Shown in pieces: positions 14,649-48,511 of a stretch of DNA of 64,000 nucleotides. Each line of letters starts with the position of its first letter. Within the stretch, counting starts at the first letter, position 1. Made by a program: the position numbers and the translations under genes. The notes under the pieces are model-generated. The model searched no databases, had not been told where the DNA came from, and was given only the letters and a program-made list of their open reading frames with translations. Source of the DNA: a virus (lineage: Duplodnaviria; Caudoviricetes); IMG/VR virus record IMGVR_UViG_2933096044_000001, positions 35,146 to 99,145 of that record; one strand, 5' to 3'.

Positions 14649-14668
14649 CGCTTGCGCTACCGCTGGCG
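14649..14668. promoter_or_regulatory. motif copy 4
   Basis: CGCTTGCG CTAC CGCTGGCG. Confidence 0.75.
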
Positions 14669-26392: not shown

Positions 26393-27169
26393 CTACTCGC
26401 CCGCGTTACCGCTGGCGTTATGTGATTCTCGACGCTCGCGCCACCTGCGTACGGCGACATAGGACGCCGTAAGGGCTGCTGTCGCGAGTAACGCGCCGCC
26501 CGTGAGCAGAAGCGGCAGATTGATTCCCTCGTCCGACACGCGGCGCATGCTGGAAGCGCTCGGAGAGTCGGACGGGTCCGGCGTGACGGTGGTGTCCGGC
26601 GCGACGGTGACGGCAGGTCCGGGCGTGCCGTTCCTGCCGTTGATGCCGTCCCTGCCGGGCGTACCGGGGTTGCCCTGCCCGCCCGGCTCACCCTGGGGAC
26701 CGGGCGAGCCTGCGGGACCGGTCGGACCGGGCTCGCCGGGCTCACCCTTCGGACCCTGGGGGCCTGCCGGACCCTGGTCTCCCTTCGGACCCTGCGGGCC
26801 TGCCGGACCCTCCGGACCCTGCGCGCCGGTCGGACCGGGCTCGCCCTGCGGACCCTGAGGACCGGGCGAACCCTGCACGCCTGCCGGACCCTGAGGACCG
26901 GGCGAACCGGCGGGGCCGGTGAGGGTCACCACGTCCATGCAGAGCGGGAACGGCATCACGGTTTTGATCACCTGGGGCGGTTCACCGGGAACGGTGATCT
27001 CCGCCGTAGGCGTCACGGTGACGCACACCGGTACTTCGGCGTACGCCGTGGTGGTCGCGCTGCTAGGCACGACTTGTGCGGCGATGGCCAGCGTTGCGGC
27101 GGCGGTCGCTGCGCTGAGAAGCGCTGCTCTCGCTGCCCTGGCCGTTGATCGGTTTCTCACGCTGCACAC
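26393..27169 (-). CDS. exported collagen-like surface protein
   Basis: signal peptide, about 30 G-X-Y triplets, C-terminal TM plus RRWRERR. Confidence 0.8.
26398..26417. promoter_or_regulatory. motif copy 5
   Basis: CGCCCGCG TTAC CGCTGGCG. Confidence 0.75.
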
Positions 27170-38336: not shown

Positions 38337-38356
38337 CGATTGCGGTACCGCTGGCG
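38337..38356. promoter_or_regulatory. motif copy 7
   Basis: CGATTGCG GTAC CGCTGGCG. Confidence 0.75.
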
Positions 38357-38649
38357 ATATTGGCTACTTGCCTGTTGTGGTGGATCACCGTTGACGGCAC
38401 CTTTTGGCTGGTCAGTGCTCGTATTGATTTAGCTGTTGATCTTGATTCGGACAAGGCTGTCCGACTCCTTGAGCCTATCGCGATCATGTCCTACATGTCC
38501 ACTTTGTAATTACAGACGTGACATCGAGGACATTGGGAACTGTCATCAAGTCAGTGGAGCGTCATGAAAGTTGTGCGCTTCACACCTGGGCGGATCGGCA
38601 CTCAGGTTGGTACCGTTGCGACAAATACGCCACGAAGAAGGACGCCGTA

Positions 38650-39153
38650 GTGCCGAAGCCGCCACACCGACCCGCCGAAGTGGAACTTCTCCACCGCCTA
38701 CGCACACGGCAGGACGAACTCCTGCCTGAGATCCCTCTCAAGGCCGTCGCCGAGAAGATCGCCCAGACTGCTGGGTACAACTTCTACACCAACAAGGTGC
38801 GCCGCATCGAAAGCGGCGAGACCACTGCCAGCGATCTTGACTACGCCTGGTTTGCATGGGCGGTCGGAGCGTCTGTGAGCCAAGTTGAGGAGGTCGGCCG
38901 GCCCGAGGCCGCACGCCTGCTGCGCGAGATCATCGCCAAGAACTCCGCAACCGAGACGAAGCGGGCCAGCCTGGACCTATCCATCACCCCTGACCGATTC
39001 CAGGCCGAGCTGCAGGAGAAGCTACGGGAGATCCGCACTATGCCGGGCATCAGCGACGAGGACCGCGACCGCATGGAGGAAACCCTTCTCCAGCACCTCG
39101 ACCTGGTGCTACGAACCTATGACCAGCAGATTCACATGCTTCGTGCTCGCTGA
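38650..39153 (+). CDS. XRE-like HTH regulator (candidate repressor)
   Basis: L..LR...LKAVAEKI...VRRIESGE; divergent from early operon. Confidence 0.65.
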   Translation: MPKPPHRPAEVELLHRLRTRQDELLPEIPLKAVAEKIAQTAGYNFYTNKVRRIESGETTASDLDYAWFAWAVGASVSQVEEVGRPEAARLLREIIAKNSATETKRASLDLSITPDRFQAELQEKLREIRTMPGISDEDRDRMEETLLQHLDLVLRTYDQQIHMLRAR

Positions 39154-42425: not shown

Positions 42426-43127
42426 TTAGTCCTGTTTGAGAGCGAACGTCCCTTTATTGGGAAGGGTGTTCACCAAGCCGTGATCCCTCAGCCGCTCAAG
42501 AGCGGCCCGCACCACTTTGCGTGTCACGCCGAACTCCTCAGCGAGCGCTGTCTCTCCTGGTAGAGCCTCCCCTGGCCGGTAGCGGCCTTGACGAATCCGG
42601 GAGGCGATTTCCCGGGAGATCGCTTCTCCCTTGGTCGGCTCTCGCCGCACCTGGATGCCTTCCGGCCCGACGAATCTGCCGAGCCGGCCCCGCGAGTGGA
42701 TGAGTCCTTCCTCCCGCAGCTCCCGCAGCGCCGCCCGGATCGCTGGCGACGACAGGTTGTACATGGCCATCAGCTCCGGCTCCTTGGGGAGCTGGTCACC
42801 CTCCTTCAGCCGTCCCTCGGCGATGCCGTCGCGAATGTCCTGCAACATTCGATCAGTCAGGGACATGGGGGGCTGCTGCTGTCCGGGCCTGGCGACAAAG
42901 CTCCCGCTGCCGTGCACGGTGACGATCAGGCCCCACTGGCGTAGACGGTCCAGGCCAGAGCGCACAGCAGCGCGGCCAACACCGTACGCGGCCTGTAGGT
43001 CCGGCTCGGCCGGAAGCTGGTCCCCGTGCTTGAGCCGGCCCGCCTTGATGTCGGCCAGCACGCCGGCGGCGACTCGCTCGCCGGGGGTGAGGGTCTGGAC
43101 TTCGGGGCCGTCTAGGGGTGCGGTCAC
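42426..43127 (-). CDS. triple GntR winged-helix protein
   Basis: three repeats of I..G....G..LP.E..L...Y/F.V....R..L..L...GL. Confidence 0.85.
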   Translation of the reverse strand: MTAPLDGPEVQTLTPGERVAAGVLADIKAGRLKHGDQLPAEPDLQAAYGVGRAAVRSGLDRLRQWGLIVTVHGSGSFVARPGQQQPPMSLTDRMLQDIRDGIAEGRLKEGDQLPKEPELMAMYNLSSPAIRAALRELREEGLIHSRGRLGRFVGPEGIQVRREPTKGEAISREIASRIRQGRYRPGEALPGETALAEEFGVTRKVVRAALERLRDHGLVNTLPNKGTFALKQD

Positions 43128-43762: not shown

Positions 43763-44091
43763 GGCTGCTCCGGCTGGTAGGCGATCTCGTCACGGATCGC
43801 CGCCTTCCAGGCGTCCACGTCGATCGTGTCCAGCTCGAAGAGGATGACGGACAGCTTCTGCTCCCATTCCTGCACGCGGGTCCGCTGGGAGTCGGGGACG
43901 GGGTAGGCGGACGGGCCGCTCAGTTGGCCGCGCAGCGTGTCGAGGGCGGTCGCGACGCGGGAACGGCAGGTCTTGATCTCCGTGCCGGCGTGGATCATCG
44001 CGTCCCACGGGCGGCGCCGCCGGTGGAAGGCGCTCTGGTCCTCGTCGGGCTGCTGCTGCTCGGGCAGTAGGCTGCGGGTCTTGTCAGGCAT
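43759..44091 (-). CDS. hypothetical protein
   Basis: coupled ORF. Confidence 0.5.
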   Translation of the reverse strand: MPDKTRSLLPEQQQPDEDQSAFHRRRRPWDAMIHAGTEIKTCRSRVATALDTLRGQLSGPSAYPVPDSQRTRVQEWEQKLSVILFELDTIDVDAWKAAIRDEIAYQPEQP

Positions 44092-44356
44092 GGTTGTCTC
44101 CCTGCAGATACGTGATGAGGCGGTTGGCCCATTCCTTTGGGATCTGGGCGCGGGATTCGGCTAGTAGCCGGGTCTGGTCCACCCGAATCGGCGCGAGTTG
44201 CTCCGACAGGAATACGGACCGCTCGCGGATCTCCATCAGCCGGTCCAGGGCCGGGTCCCACCGGCCGCCCTCGACCGTCGTGAGGAAGCGCCCAAGCGTC
44301 TCGATGAGGACGGCCAGGTGCTTGGCGGCTGTCGCCTGGCGGTTCTCTGTGCTCAT
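44084..44356 (-). CDS. hypothetical protein
   Basis: coupled ORF. Confidence 0.5.
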   Translation of the reverse strand: MSTENRQATAAKHLAVLIETLGRFLTTVEGGRWDPALDRLMEIRERSVFLSEQLAPIRVDQTRLLAESRAQIPKEWANRLITYLQGDNHA

Positions 44357-44787
44357 CGGCAGCAGTCGCTTTCCTCACAGCCGTATCGCTCGCACCGCTG
44401 GTGCTGGCAGTCCGGGCCGTGGGTGCAGGTGGGCGGGTCGGCCACGGCGGCCGGGGCCGGCACCGGGTCCTGGGGCTGGGCCGCGGTCTCTTGCGGCACT
44501 TCGACCGGTTCAGCGGCTACGGGTGTGGGCGCCTCCGTCGGGGCTGTGTTCGCACGCAGGCGCAGCATCGCGTGCCCGACCGCGCCCACGGGGCCTCGGT
44601 GCTGGCCGCCTGCCCGGATGTACTCCTCGGCGGCGGTGCGCATGAAGTCATAGCGCAGGTTGCCGTCGGCGTCGACGAACTCCTCGTCGGGCATGTCGGG
44701 CATGTTCGCGGCCATCTTCTTGATGATGGTGTCGGCCGTGAGCTCGTTCACGGCTTCCTGGTAGTGCGTGGGCAGTCGGGGGTTCAT
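44353..44787 (-). CDS. hypothetical protein with Cys-rich tail
   Basis: start MNPRL, TGATG overlap. Confidence 0.5.
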   Translation of the reverse strand: MNPRLPTHYQEAVNELTADTIIKKMAANMPDMPDEEFVDADGNLRYDFMRTAAEEYIRAGGQHRGPVGAVGHAMLRLRANTAPTEAPTPVAAEPVEVPQETAAQPQDPVPAPAAVADPPTCTHGPDCQHQRCERYGCEESDCCR

Positions 44788-44998
44788 CAGTTCTCTTCCT
44801 GGGTGAGGGCCGCGGCCAGGGAGCGCTTCAGCTTCTCGGCCTGGTCGAGGGTCATTTCGGTGAGGCTGCCGTCGAGGGTCCGGTCGCCGGGCAGCGGATC
44901 GATGTAGATCGTGTCGCCGTCGTCGGGTCGGATACAGCGACGGGGCTTCCTGCGACGGTGTACTCGAAGGGGTCGCAGTGGAACGCTTGCACGCGCAT
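44787..44998 (-). pseudogene. small gene with probable 1-bp deletion near 44925
   Basis: ATG with RBS at 44998; GC3-rich frame switches at VSD/PDDG. Confidence 0.45.
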
Positions 44999-45010
44999 GT
45001 CCGTTTCCTG

Positions 45011-45391
45011 TCAGCGGATGTCGCCGCCTGATAGGCGGATCTGCCTCTCCTCTTCGGCGGTGAGGAGGTGGGCGGGCAGCGTTGCGACGTCTTCTTGGGT
45101 GGCGCGGTGGATGCGGTGCCAGCCGTCGATGGTGAGGTAGCCAGCGAAGGACTCTCCGGGCTTCTTGGGATCGTGTACGGCAACGACCAGGACCGGCTTG
45201 TTGAGGTCCACGGTGGCGGCGTGTGCCTGGTTGATGACGATCACAGGCAGCCACTTGGCGGCGTCCGCGACTCCGATGGTGGCGTTGGGTTCGCGGCCTT
45301 CGACGAGGGCGAGGGCGGCGGTGATGTCCCATTGGTAGGCCAGCATGCTGAAGATCTCGCGGCATGGCTGGTCTGCTACGGCGTTACTCAT
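45011..45391 (-). CDS. ParB/Srx-like protein
   Basis: DL.KPVLV...TIDGWHRI. Confidence 0.65.
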   Translation of the reverse strand: MSNAVADQPCREIFSMLAYQWDITAALALVEGREPNATIGVADAAKWLPVIVINQAHAATVDLNKPVLVVAVHDPKKPGESFAGYLTIDGWHRIHRATQEDVATLPAHLLTAEEERQIRLSGGDIR

Positions 45392-45401
45392 CTTGTCCTT
45401 T

Positions 45402-45421
45402 CGACTGCGGTTCCGCTGGCG
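45402..45421. promoter_or_regulatory. motif copy 8
   Basis: CGACTGCG GTTC CGCTGGCG. Confidence 0.75.
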
Positions 45422-45572
45422 CTTGGTGATTCGTGCCTGTGCGGTGCTGTGGTGGTCGGAGGAGGGCTTTCATGCCCCTCTTGATGCTAGCGGACCATCG
45501 GACGTCTCTATACCTATAGGGAACAGCTCAGAGATTCATGAATCGGACAAATCGGACACGAGGAGTGTGTTA

Positions 45573-46481
45573 ATGAGGCGGCAGCCCAATACGCTGAGAC
45601 ACAGCAAGCAACCCGCCCCGCCACCACTGGAGCGCGCACCCATGCCTCGCAAGCAGTCCGATCCACGGTCGGCCCCACTCGTCGAGCCCAGCAGTTCGCC
45701 AGCGGCAGCGCTGGCAGGGCGCACCAATAGGCCACTCCGCGTCCGCGAGGCCCAGTGGACCAACTTGCACAGCACGACCGCCCGCCTCGACCAGGACACC
45801 GACAACCGCCTCACGGCCTCCGTACAACGCACAGGCAAGGGCGTCCAAGACATTTGGGAAGCGGCGATCAACCTCCTTGCCGACCAGAACGGCGTCCGCA
45901 AGGAGATGCCTGCCGGCGCGGACCTGGCGCTTCCGCAACCCATTGAGCGACGTACCCTCGACGAGGGCACCGTGAAGGCGACTGTGCGTCTCACGAGGAA
46001 CACGAGAGCGCGACTCGTCGCCACGGCGTCACGGCTCGGCTTGGGTGGCAGTGAAGCCGTCGTCGAGGCGCTCAACGTCTGGTTCGACGAGCAAGGCACC
46101 CCTGGCGAACATGCTGTCCCGATACGGCGAGCAACAAGATACGTCACCAAAGTCATGATTAGCGAGGAGACGAGCGAGCGGCTAAAACGCGAGCTACAGC
46201 GCCTGCAGATGACTACCCAAAGCGTCGTAGAAGAGTCGATCAACAGGTATGCCTCTCAGCACGGGGTGCCCGAGACGATGCCCGCGGGCTCCCCTTTGGC
46301 TCTGCCGAAGCCGGGAAGGGCGAGTGCGCACCGCGGGACGGTGCCCACGATTGCGCGGTTGACGGAGAACACGAGGGCTCGCCTGGTCGCGGTGTGTGTG
46401 CAGCAGTCGCGGACAGCCGCCGAGGTGATCAACGAGGCCCTCAGCGAATTTTGTGATCAGCACGGGATGTCTGATGGTTGA
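45573..46481 (+). CDS. four-ribbon-helix-helix DNA-binding protein (start 45573 or 45642)
   Basis: four beta-alpha-alpha units in an (AB)2 arrangement. Confidence 0.7.
   Translation: MRRQPNTLRHSKQPAPPPLERAPMPRKQSDPRSAPLVEPSSSPAAALAGRTNRPLRVREAQWTNLHSTTARLDQDTDNRLTASVQRTGKGVQDIWEAAINLLADQNGVRKEMPAGADLALPQPIERRTLDEGTVKATVRLTRNTRARLVATASRLGLGGSEAVVEALNVWFDEQGTPGEHAVPIRRATRYVTKVMISEETSERLKRELQRLQMTTQSVVEESINRYASQHGVPETMPAGSPLALPKPGRASAHRGTVPTIARLTENTRARLVAVCVQQSRTAAEVINEALSEFCDQHGMSDG
45697..45716. promoter_or_regulatory. motif copy 9 (inside 5' end of four-RHH gene)
   Basis: CGCCAGCG GCAG CGCTGGCA. Confidence 0.65.
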
Positions 46482-46561
46482 TCACAAACTGTAGAGTGTT
46501 CCACAGGATGCAGAGGGCGCCATCAGACACGAGACCGCCCTCTGCCAGCTTGAGACAGAAT

Positions 46562-48109
46562 TTATACCTCCGGCTTCGCAATGCGACGCCCTACCTGCAC
46601 GTTCCAACGCTTGCGTAGCCACTCCACCAGCCCGTACGAGTTGATTCCCCCAAATATCACGAAAGCGATCCCTGCCCCTACACCCGTGTCCTGGGACGTC
46701 TCCAACCCTCCCCAGAACAACAGGCCGAGCGGCGGCACCCATGTACGAACCTGCGAGCGCAGCACCCAGCACAAAAAACCCATGCATGAGGCGGCAGCAG
46801 AGCGTGCCCAGCAGGAGATACGCGAGTGCAGACCAGCGTAAAGAATGCCAGCGGCGTAGTTGAGAGCATGCCCACGCCCGTTTCCTCCGATGAGTTGGAG
46901 AAGCGCCTCTTTCCACTCCTCACCCCGCTCTGGTTCGACAGCTAAGATCGCACCCCATTCACAGAGGCGGCGAACTGCCGGTGAGGGCTTACCAGTCGCT
47001 TTATTACCGATGGATAGCTTAAGGCTCTCTTCCCGCGCTTCAGCGGGGCGTGGGTAACCGTGATTGGCCGCGAGTTTGTAGTAGAACCTGGCGATGTCAA
47101 GCTGCCCGGGTCCTGTACGTTCGTAGGCGCGGGCATACAAGAGGGCTGCATTTGCCGCGAACTCAATCGGGTCTGAGTCGTTCGCCAGGGCTTCGGCTTG
47201 GGGGTGTTGTTGCTGGCACGCGGCATTGGTCCAGTAGCGGGCCTCCGCGGACTCGCCGGTCAGCACGTGGATGACCGCCAGCCGGTACGCGGACTCCGCG
47301 TCGCCGTCGCCCGCCAGACGGACCAGGCGCGCGACGGTCCTGGTGGTGCGCCGTTCGGCCTCGTCCGCGGCGGTGCCGTAGAGGTCGTACGAGCCGGTGG
47401 CGTGCAGCCGGGGCTGCTCATTCCTGGCCGCGCTCCAGCGGGCCTGCCACTGCTCGACGCTGCCGAGGCCGTTGATGGGCAGCCCCGTGCCCTCGGCGTG
47501 GCGGTGGCACACCATCACGAAGGAGGCAACCACCTCCCAGCCGGGCAGACGTTCCCGCTTGCCGTTGAGGATGTCGTGGAGGGTGCTCGCCGCAAGTTCC
47601 CTGGGGACGCCGTGAGCACGGGACAACCGGTGCATCTGGGCATAGCTCGGCTGCCCTGCCGACTCACGCAGCTCCACGAGCGCGGCGGTAAAAGTGCCCC
47701 CAGGCGCACCATCAGCCACCGGGTGAACTACTCTCGCGACGTTTTTGGTGGTGCGCCGTTCGGCCTCGTCCGCGGGGGTGCCGTAGAGGTCGTACGAGCC
47801 GGTGGCGTGCAGCCGGGGCTGCTCATTCCTGGCCGCGCTCCAGCGGGCCTGCCACTGCTCGACGCTGCCGAGGCCGTTGATGGGCAGCCCCGTGCCCTCG
47901 GCGTGGCGGTGGCACACCATCACGAAGGAGGCAACCACCTCCCAGCCGGGCAGACGTTCCCGCTTGCCGTTGAGGATGTCGTGGAGGGTGCTCGCCGCAA
48001 GTTCCCTGGGGACGCCGTGAGCACGGGACAACCGGTGCATCTGGGCATAGCTCGGCTGCCCTGCCGACTCACGCAGCTCCACGAGCGCGCCCTGGAAAGC
48101 CGACGTCAT
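46562..48109 (-). CDS. duplicated HTH plus SEL1-like repeats plus TM protein coupled to PadR
   Basis: two copies of L.ELR..AG.PSY...STL.D.L.G.R..LP.W; A..GD.E.AY.L; EEW motif; C-terminal TM. Confidence 0.75.
   Translation of the reverse strand: MTSAFQGALVELRESAGQPSYAQMHRLSRAHGVPRELAASTLHDILNGKRERLPGWEVVASFVMVCHRHAEGTGLPINGLGSVEQWQARWSAARNEQPRLHATGSYDLYGTPADEAERRTTKNVARVVHPVADGAPGGTFTAALVELRESAGQPSYAQMHRLSRAHGVPRELAASTLHDILNGKRERLPGWEVVASFVMVCHRHAEGTGLPINGLGSVEQWQARWSAARNEQPRLHATGSYDLYGTAADEAERRTTRTVARLVRLAGDGDAESAYRLAVIHVLTGESAEARYWTNAACQQQHPQAEALANDSDPIEFAANAALLYARAYERTGPGQLDIARFYYKLAANHGYPRPAEAREESLKLSIGNKATGKPSPAVRRLCEWGAILAVEPERGEEWKEALLQLIGGNGRGHALNYAAGILYAGLHSRISCWARSAAASCMGFLCWVLRSQVRTWVPPLGLLFWGGLETSQDTGVGAGIAFVIFGGINSYGLVEWLRKRWNVQVGRRIAKPEV
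47341..48089. repeat. 344-bp direct repeat (47341-47684 / 47746-48089)
   Basis: 405-bp offset; one mismatch seen. Confidence 0.9.
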
Positions 48110-48408
48110 TGTGCCCACCTCGGTCGAATGCTTGGAGATGTCGCCTCCATGGCCTGCATTGCCGAAAGACCTTCACCAGCCAACTCGTACATGCGACGTC
48201 GGGGGCCTCGAGTGTCGTCTTGGGCCCAGTATGCGCGGACCCATCCAACTCGTTCGAGTCGCGTGAGGATGGGATAGACGGTCCCCGGCCCGAGTCCGGT
48301 GATCTTGCAGATCTCCAGACCGTAGGTGGCACCACCGTGAGAGGCGGCAGCCTGGAGCATTTCTAGCACCTCTCGAGTAGTTCTTGTCATGCGGATGGTT
48401 GATCCCAT
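48106..48408 (-). CDS. PadR-family regulator
   Basis: TYGLEI...GL.PGTVYPIL.RLE..GWV...RRRMYEL..EG. Confidence 0.9.
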   Translation of the reverse strand: MGSTIRMTRTTREVLEMLQAAASHGGATYGLEICKITGLGPGTVYPILTRLERVGWVRAYWAQDDTRGPRRRMYELAGEGLSAMQAMEATSPSIRPRWAQ

Positions 48409-48511
48409 TGCAGCTCCGTTATCGTCCTCGATCTATATCGAGATAGCGTACCCAGCCAACGGTGGGCTCGCCGGGAAAGTTCCAGACTAGGAAGGCGTTA
48501 CGAACGCGCAA

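Follow-up and report, generated by a model that had tools for sequence, protein, structure and literature searches.

The window analysed here, 64,000 nucleotides in length, spans bases 35146-99145 of the 99,145-bp IMG/VR virus record IMGVR_UViG_2933096044_000001 and forms the final 64 kb of a 99-kb phage. A rightward gene in this window (Table 1) encodes a protein with four ribbon-helix-helix (RHH) units in a single chain, which predicted structures arrange as two intramolecular RHH2 modules and which arose by a single internal duplication. A 20-bp motif dispersed over the phage genome has two copies at the locus, one of them conserved inside the coding sequence. The analysis shows the fold at the level of prediction, together with the internal duplication, how the genes are laid out, the statistics of the motif and the retention of its in-gene copy; we infer that the protein may bind the motif, act in repression and do so as a monomer. 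The explanation that we favour, tentatively and with slightly less than even confidence, is that this four-RHH protein is a monomeric regulator, a prophage maintenance repressor that reads the dispersed motif.

Four RHH units in a single chain

An initial annotation of this DNA had described four beta-alpha-alpha units, with the same MPAG..LALP.P linker after units 1 and 3. All four units (STTARLDQDTDNRL, KATVRLTRNTRARL, VTKVMISEETSERL and PTIARLTENTRARL) and both linkers (MPAGADLALPQP and MPAGSPLALPKP) were found in the translation, and AlphaFold2 gave exactly four strand-helix-helix units. In the whole-protein model, which was built with a 15-sequence alignment and is numbered after P0001, the strand and two helices span residues 65-73, 74-87 and 91-105 in unit 1; 133-141, 142-155 and 159-174 in unit 2; 189-197, 198-211 and 215-229 in unit 3; and 256-264, 265-278 and 282-296 in unit 4. 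Residues 1-62 are disordered. This model has a mean predicted local distance difference test (pLDDT) score of 73 and a predicted template-modelling score (pTM) of 0.48; when the N-module (units 1 and 2) was folded alone with 17 relatives, the scores were 89.3 and 0.82.

We used VIA-align to compare the modules with 48,161 representative chains. The best match of the N-module was 9f0x_E (Z 10.7, root-mean-square deviation (rmsd) 3.0, 94 residues aligned), with further matches to 1u9p (Z 8.5), 6oaw_B (6.3), AvtR (6.2) and DndE (5.9). Residues 190-299 of the whole model, which contain units 3 and 4, matched 9f0x_E again (Z 10.4, rmsd 2.4, 91 residues aligned), then the permuted single-chain Arc 1u9p_A (Z 8.4), AvtR (4hv0, Z 6.8) and DndE (Z 6.0). 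Both halves therefore superpose on single-chain RHH2 structures, across 87-94 residues. We take chain E of 9f0x to be TraY of the F plasmid, judging from its chain length (113 residues aligned over two units) and from PMC12117103, which describes F TraY as a monomer with the whole RHH-dimer fold in one polypeptide. Foldseek returned no match in the PDB at E 0.001 or better, and its top 10 rows were all chains of the F-plasmid relaxosome (E ~0.01, template-modelling (TM) score by target 0.58-0.68).

In profile searches the four-RHH protein fell below the Pfam RHH cut-offs (11.8 bits against 20.5 for RHH_1 and 14.8 against 27 for RHH_10). Its homologue P0013 passes RHH_1 with 23.8 bits, and the family profile matches the PutA RHH domain on unit 3 (E 2.6e-5). 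Strand-helix-helix units, predicted RHH2 pairing and a profile match by way of a homologue together place the protein in the RHH superfamily. The models support an RHH fold made up of two intramolecular RHH2 modules, as the initial annotation had anticipated, with both halves matching TraY and single-chain Arc. Pfam matches to Pertussis_S2S3, HindIII and Ubinuclein (E 0.05-0.1) were set aside as chance. We also rejected phrog_876 ('transcriptional repressor', 239 positions) as a multi-RHH precedent because different units all match one stretch of it, at about positions 55-109. Neighbours in the ESM Atlas were uninformative, comprising hypothetical proteins of 165-212 residues at 0.90 and RHH_1- and Arc-bearing clusters at 0.88-0.89.

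The two halves of the protein are 40% identical across 110 residues (E 6e-25), with the MPAG..LALP.P linker included in the alignment. A word-indexed search found 20 relatives, 14 with four units (239-312 residues) and 6 with two (166-181 residues); an exhaustive search of 1.84 billion representatives returned 13 relatives only, one of them of four-unit length. We built a maximum-likelihood tree of 47 rows (15 N-modules, 15 C-modules and 17 two-unit proteins), in which the root and the exact sister are not fixed and several two-unit rows sit on long branches. The N-modules form one clade (98/94) and the C-modules another (100/99), and the architecture therefore goes back to a single duplication, AB to ABAB. 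Half-to-half identity and the two module clades thus bear out the (AB)2 layout that had been read from the linkers. By sequence comparison, the ancestral two-unit form survives in related Nonomuraea phages, whose RHH proteins are 33-40% identical to the four-unit form. A homologue was present in 10 of 301 sampled host-family genomes.

RHH proteins are textbook obligate oligomers, in which each reading head takes a dimer and each operator a tetramer. Two-unit chains do occur in nature, among them TraY, AvtR, VirC2 and DndE. Full-text literature searches, which were non-exhaustive, found no description of four RHH units in one chain.

The reading frame of the gene is open from 45345 to 46481 and offers an alternative ATG at 45573; its G+C content at third codon positions (GC3) is 0.76 from 45573 onward and 0.63 upstream of that position. 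We place the start at ATG 45642 because the MPRKQ-type N-terminus encoded there is conserved, being the start of, or contained in, 11 of 14 four-unit homologues (MPRRN and MPVKR occur in two), because GGAG lies 9 nt upstream at 45629-45632, and because a -10-like element lies downstream of the alternative ATG. This element, TACGCT, has TACGGT, TACCGT or TAACGT as its positional counterpart in relatives of both the four-unit and the two-unit kind and is a putative -10 of the gene's own promoter. A sigma-70 consensus scan of 45300-46650 returned 0 promoters. Downstream, a hairpin (-28.4 kcal/mol as an RNA fold, with z -2.5) stands between the four-RHH gene and its convergent neighbour at 46562-48118, and the four-RHH gene is therefore monocistronic. 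It is the lone rightward gene locally and, as originally described, is divergent from a leftward operon, which starts at 45391.

A dispersed 20-bp motif and its copies at the locus

On the gene strand the motif reads (A/T-rich)3-CGCCAGCGGTAnCGC(T/A)(G/A)nCG, a near-palindrome of CGCCAGCGGT. Its 14-mer was matched 39 times at no more than 1 mismatch, against 9.9 +/- 2.9 times in shuffled sequences, and none of 100 shuffles reached 39. A position weight matrix (PWM) gave 23 matches of at least 15 bits in this genome and 1 in reversed-sequence controls, a count that is partly by construction since the PWM was trained on this genome's own 17 seed copies. At the same threshold, G000 (this genome) and the independent relatives G001-G003 each had 17-23 matches, against 0-1 in reversed controls. 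The exact 15-mer occurred in 121 stretches across viral contigs, nearly all of them single chance matches. Only one further record, G308, had multiple copies; this 41-kb fragment of a relative ends before the RHH locus, and the absence of the gene there is therefore uninformative.

Sixteen loci in this genome score at least 17 bits. Twelve are asymmetric copies on the - strand amid - strand genes, one scores better on the + strand and lies inside the four-RHH gene, and three, all in the structural operon, are palindromic. Every asymmetric copy (13/13) has the orientation of the genes around it. The start codon follows a copy at 10-30 nt, and where the longest open reading frame (ORF) places a copy 'inside' a gene, the Shine-Dalgarno sequence and start codon come after the motif. 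The copy at 14649-14668 fills a gap of ~25 nt between two genes of one operon. Among 50 sites from four phages, only the 20-mer and about three A/T-rich bases are conserved. We rejected the motif as a promoter, because no -35 or -10 is conserved across these sites and the intra-operon gap is too small.

We considered whether the motif acts in RNA, as a 5'-leader or intercistronic element in translation, processing or stability, with the RHH protein being an unrelated transcription factor. Consistent with this reading, the copies are transcribed, lie shortly before start codons and in one case inside an operon, and are strictly co-oriented with genes; moreover, 7 of the 16 fold into RNA hairpins of -12 to -18 kcal/mol, and a GC-rich hairpin follows four copies within ~10 nt. 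However, the other 9 copies keep the sequence with no stable hairpin (-3 to -8 kcal/mol; z ~0 for most), which argues that the conserved feature is the sequence, as would be the case if a protein bound it in double-stranded DNA. The 10-bp palindrome of the motif core, GCGGTACCGC, likewise suits a duplex-binding protein that is dimeric or pseudo-dimeric, and a search of the window with Rfam at gathering threshold gave 0 matches. We therefore regard action in RNA as quite improbable. ARAGORN also gave 0 matches on the window.

Strong GC-rich hairpins stand within ~10 nt of the - strand copies at 26398, 50805, 60096 and 63879, where they replace the ribosome-binding site. The same motif-then-hairpin arrangement occurs in relatives L002, L003, L004 and L006.

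The initial annotation had placed one motif copy upstream of the four-RHH gene and a near-palindromic copy in its own 5' end, and both proved to be real (Table 1). The upstream, leftward-reading copy is kept in L002, G002 and G003 and is recognisable in the two-unit loci L042 and L051; G004, G005 and L043 have a more degenerate inverted repeat at its position. The in-gene copy consists of 7-bp arms around a 4-nt centre and is co-oriented with the gene. The copy encodes A-E/G-P-Q-S in an otherwise variable, disordered tail of the protein, and its equivalent in relatives has the bases GCG GAA CCG CAA TC, read as A-E-P-Q-S. Compared with GCGGnACCGCAATC, this copy is exact in G004, L042, L043 and L051 and has 1 mismatch in G005, 2 in G001, G002, L041 and L049, 3 in G003, L007 and L045 (read manually, also in L002 and L005) and 4 in G000. 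In five divergent homologues (L044, L046, L047, L048 and L052) it does not rise above background, and these same five depart from the otherwise invariant second-unit strand VRLxxNTRARL, as read by eye. In G003, the in-gene copy bears that phage's own CGCAAG variant. The in-gene copy also uses rare codons (GAA 24%, CAA 16% and CCA 9% of their codon families), which is no more than suggestive, as the gene has GAA elsewhere too.

Together, these comparisons tie the gene family functionally to the motif. Given such a tie, either the RHH protein binds the motif, which would amount to autoregulation, or the motif's binder controls the RHH gene. Motif-bearing relatives carry the gene in every complete one examined (G001, G002 and G003). 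When 110 predicted proteins were compared with five related phages by tblastn, the RHH gene was matched in 5/5, and most other regulators were patchier.

It had also been proposed that fusing non-identical units would allow one chain to read a site with unequal arms, and a comparison of the arms agrees with this idea in part. In four-unit phages the arms are indeed unequal, with CG[CA]CA upstream (left) in 32/46 sites and downstream (right) in 7/46, whereas in two-unit phages the three bases bordering the core show no such difference between left and right (20 and 21 of 22). The outer GCTnAnn is still one-sided in the two-unit phages, however (17 vs 5), so that sites are oriented in both of the only two lineages compared. 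The ancestral arm of the two-unit phages might persist as the right arm of four-unit sites, but the case for this is weak (8/35 against ~1.3 expected). The core is common to four-unit and two-unit phages, and the flanks alone differ.

Candidate readers of the motif and targets of the protein

In the explanation that we favour, a phage protein with two units, resembling TraY or AvtR, gave rise to this one when it duplicated internally a single time. A flexible linker of ~15 residues connects the resulting pseudo-dimeric RHH2 modules, and one chain would thereby have the reading capacity of an Arc or Mnt tetramer. The gene would be transcribed alone, against nearly all phage genes, from a promoter flanked by two motif copies, and its product would serve as the prophage maintenance repressor. 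Each module would read one 10-bp arm of the motif; occupied sites, which follow the direction of transcription in short gaps just upstream of ribosome-binding sites, would block initiation or elongation genome-wide, much as cluster A mycobacteriophage stoperators do but through an RHH reader, and the copy in the gene's own 5' coding end would result in negative autoregulation. For motif reading by the four-RHH protein taken on its own, we put the chance close to, though still below, an even one. It is unlikely on balance that the protein goes as far as being a single-chain RHH 'tetramer' that acts as a monomeric, orientation-sensitive silencer of the whole 99-kb prophage, with modules that diverged for unequal arms after internal duplication of a two-unit phage repressor, as an RHH counterpart of stoperators.

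Several observations weigh against the four-RHH protein as the reader. At a pTM of 0.48, the relative placement of its two modules is uncertain. The window's own in-gene copy is the weakest on the right-half 14-mer, its 4 mismatches being equalled by 76 of 300 random windows, although the full PWM still gives it 21 bits. Whole phages share ancestry, which confounds any co-occurrence of gene and motif. Because the core is the same in two-unit phages, whose proteins are only distantly identical as given above, four units are not needed to account for it. The CGGAC boxes described below appear to fit the sub-site geometry of RHH proteins at least as well as the motif does. Finally, Pfam searches identified other DNA-binding proteins encoded by the phage, namely WhiB, two GntR proteins, a three-domain GntR chain, an XRE+DUF5753 protein, two PadR proteins and HU. 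The triple-GntR protein and a + strand protein at 38518-39153 were also matched in 5/5 relatives. A separate GntR gene matches G004 and G005 solely over the shared GntR domain, and WhiB, XRE+DUF5753, PadR and HU are patchier across the five relatives.

The protein at 38518-39153 has 211 residues and is encoded by another gene that runs rightward on its own, diverging from a leftward one with a motif at 38337-38356. It has only sub-threshold XRE-like leads (ESM Atlas 0.82) and no sequence match in the PDB, and is a possible CI-type repressor that might read the motif instead. The triple-GntR protein (42426-43127, - strand, 233 residues) is matched by Pfam GntR in 3 stretches (E 1.9e-52), as three tandem GntR-type winged helices, and lacks an effector domain. 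This makes two proteins with several DNA-binding domains in one chain, and the triple-GntR protein belongs to the same early operon.

A credible alternative, which we nonetheless think doubtful, is that the four-RHH protein is a local regulator acting on CGGAC/GACA boxes near its own promoter, with one box per module. Some other reader of the dispersed motif would then control the RHH gene as well, for example the triple-GntR protein, a host factor or the XRE-like protein at 38518-39153. Short sub-sites at 7-11 bp spacing are known for the RHH proteins omega, MetJ, ParG and TraY, and a direct repeat within that spacing suits two head-to-tail modules. The word ATCGGAC is under-represented in the 64 kb (6 observed against 11.2 expected), and yet 4 of the 6 lie within 45497-45662, at 45497, 45542 and 45551 on the + strand and 45656 on the - strand. 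Apart from a collagen-like coding repeat, this locus is the only place with exact CGGAC pairs spaced 8 and 9 bp apart. The tandem repeat at 45541-45558, which the initial annotation had named as an alternative target, turned out to be an exact duplicate of AATCGGACA that is both locus-specific and conserved. It is kept as AAnnnGACA-N4-GACA (AA.C.GACA.A...GACA) in 5/5 aligned four-unit loci amid intergenic DNA that varies. The conservation of other DNA-binding proteins in all five relatives points in the same direction. However, the conservation of the boxes may partly be that of a promoter, as the last GACA box in G001-G003 is a -35-like GCGACA that stands 17 bp before the conserved TACGGT. 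Furthermore, two-unit relatives with the same B-unit strand lack the CGGAC boxes yet keep both motif copies, and the conserved in-gene copy would call for a second regulator. As candidate targets judged from DNA comparison, the motif and the boxes do not permit a firm ranking, and they are not mutually exclusive.

Elsewhere in the window, a tandem repeat of 9-bp units (CGGACCCTG-like) occupies 26786-26898 and by eye encodes collagen-like Gly-Pro-X on the - strand.

TraY is the best structural match, and the separate 95-124-kb contigs on which relatives are found are possibly plasmid prophages. These observations would also suit a non-regulatory RHH protein, whether a relaxosome accessory (TraY), a centromere-binding partition protein (ParG, omega) or an antitoxin, for which there are weak RelB-like matches (24.2 bits in NCBIfam, where the cut-off is 50, and a Pfam RelB match of P0003 at E 0.007). 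However, the complete 99-kb record gave 0 matches to each of the ParA-type ATPase families PF13614 and PF01656, whose controls matched in 14/14 genomes, and 0 matches to each of the relaxase families PF03432 and PF08751, other relaxase families not having been searched. The Pfam TraY domain scores 10.9 bits on the four-RHH protein (E 0.52, cut-off 21.3). A divergent promoter region lies on one side of the gene and a terminator on the other; its operon includes no toxin gene, and the neighbouring gene is convergent. Lack of a ParA, of a relaxase from the two families and of an operon toxin argues against partition, relaxosome and antitoxin roles, and we consider any of them highly improbable. 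The suggestion of a role in plasmid stability accordingly found no support.

Returning to the four-RHH protein as a reader of the dispersed motif, several known systems offer points of comparison. Repressor c of the actinophage phiC31 has many genome-wide copies of a conserved inverted repeat and is a helix-turn-helix (HTH) protein made as nested isoforms. Arc and Mnt of P22 read operators of roughly 20 bp with two RHH2 dimers, one per arm. They do so as four separate chains, whereas here four non-identical units are covalently joined. Engineered single-chain Arc (1u9p) demonstrates that a fused RHH2 is able to fold, and it matches both modules (Z 8.4-8.5). F-plasmid TraY resembles each half of the protein in building a complete RHH2 fold from two RHH units in one chain, but has two units and acts with a relaxase at oriT, the transfer origin; the four-RHH protein has no significant Pfam TraY match. 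AvtR of Acidianus filamentous virus 6, according to PMC5569661, acts as a repressor of its own gene and has about eight sites in the genome of the virus, which are imperfect inverted repeats. It matches the modules in structure (Z 6.2-6.8) but is a protein of an archaeal virus, with two units in ~100 residues and an unrelated sequence, and its sites are not reported to follow the direction of transcription.

In motif layout there is a parallel with cluster A mycobacteriophages. PMC9283540 describes their repressor (L5 gp71, TipsytheTRex) as a monomer whose more than 20 asymmetric sites, the stoperators, occupy promoters as well as short gaps between genes, in an orientation tied to transcription. 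Motif distribution and orientation in the present phage (16 loci, 13/13 co-oriented) match what that text says of stoperators. The cluster A repressor, in contrast, combines an HTH with a 'stoperator domain' and has 13-mer sites, whereas the candidate here is an RHH protein and the site a 20-bp near-palindrome. We found no homology to an L5 gp71-type repressor, as the predicted fold is RHH and tblastn of the four-RHH protein gave no match in 50,697 phage records. By analogy, then, the resemblance would lie in the mode of working and not in family membership.

Sister phages that carry two- and four-unit forms together with the same motif constitute a natural experiment on operator symmetry, cooperativity and concentration dependence. 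If the four-RHH protein does read the motif, then orientation-dependent, genome-wide prophage silencing would have evolved independently on another DNA-binding fold, and actinomycete genetics would gain a compact monomeric reader of 20 bp.

The phage and other features of the window

Table 1. Features of the four-RHH locus, in window coordinates.
Feature	Position	Strand	Remarks
Four-RHH coding sequence	45642..46481	+	279 aa plus stop; GC3 0.76; MPRKQ N-terminus kept in homologues
N-module, RHH units 1+2 with MPAGADLALPQP linker	45765..46094	+	predicted single intramolecular RHH2 domain
C-module, RHH units 3+4 with MPAGSPLALPKP linker	46137..46460	+	predicted second intramolecular RHH2 domain
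Motif copy CGCCAGCGGAACCGCAGTCG (- strand reading)	45402..45421	-	PWM 26.8 bits; 10 nt upstream of first leftward start codon
Near-palindromic motif copy, codons 19-25	45697..45716	+	PWM 21.1 bits on +, 16.9 on -
CGGAC box pair, 8-bp spacing	45491..45503	+	sole exact CGGAC-N3-CGGAC in window
Exact tandem AATCGGACA AATCGGACA, CGGAC boxes, 9-bp spacing	45541..45558	+	conserved in four-unit loci
Inverted ATCGGAC box	45656..45662	-	14 nt into coding sequence
Putative -10 element TACGCT of gene's own promoter	45590..45595	+	position-conserved in relatives
GC-rich inverted repeat, probable bidirectional terminator	46510..46545	.	10-bp perfect arms
First gene of divergent leftward operon	45011..45391	-	126 aa, no Pfam family, GC3 0.83

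The virus record has a completeness rating of 100%, and a script found a 95-bp repeat shared by its two ends. The window has a G+C content of ~67%, and nearly all phage genes lie on the - strand by a GC3-based gene call. Matches to PHROG include the structural proteins portal, major head, head maturation, large terminase, major tail and tail chaperone, as well as RecE/RecT-like and RuvC-like proteins, a replication initiator, a tyrosine integrase and several DNA methyltransferases. Blastn of 44000-48500 against the same 50,697 phage records gave no match. Homologues of the four-RHH protein come almost exclusively from Nonomuraea, with one from a Microtetraspora plasmid, and the relatives lie on contigs of 94.7, 98.5 and 123.6 kb in three cases and on a 9-Mb chromosome in one. 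These hosts and contig settings therefore make this a temperate phage of Nonomuraea, from a lineage of Streptosporangiaceae phages. In G001 (contigs C14, C38, C105 and C617) there are five matches, made up of the four-unit gene and two-unit homologues on three other contigs, which suggests several related prophages within one Nonomuraea host.

The first gene of the divergent operon adjoins the RHH homologue in G002, G004 and G005, and another gene occupies that place in G001 and G003. Its 126-residue product contains the string DGWHR, which resembles the ParB/sulfiredoxin motif.

On the other side of the terminator, the convergent gene at 46562-48118 (- strand) has no homologue among the five related phages. 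It encodes a 518-residue protein with a near-exact internal duplication of ~135 residues, a sub-threshold HTH_31 match in each repeat (22.3 bits against a cut-off of 27) and a hydrophobic C-terminus. Two + strand ORFs that overlap this gene, at 47397-47615 and 47802-48020, are identical to each other. Outside the window, at G000:C1:12442-17621 (L012), lies a lanthipeptide-dehydratase-like gene (Lant_dehydr_N, E 1.5e-157). The same region of this phage carries a gene that fuses Lant_dehydr_C to a protein-isoaspartate O-methyltransferase, and the cassette looks like one for peptide modification.

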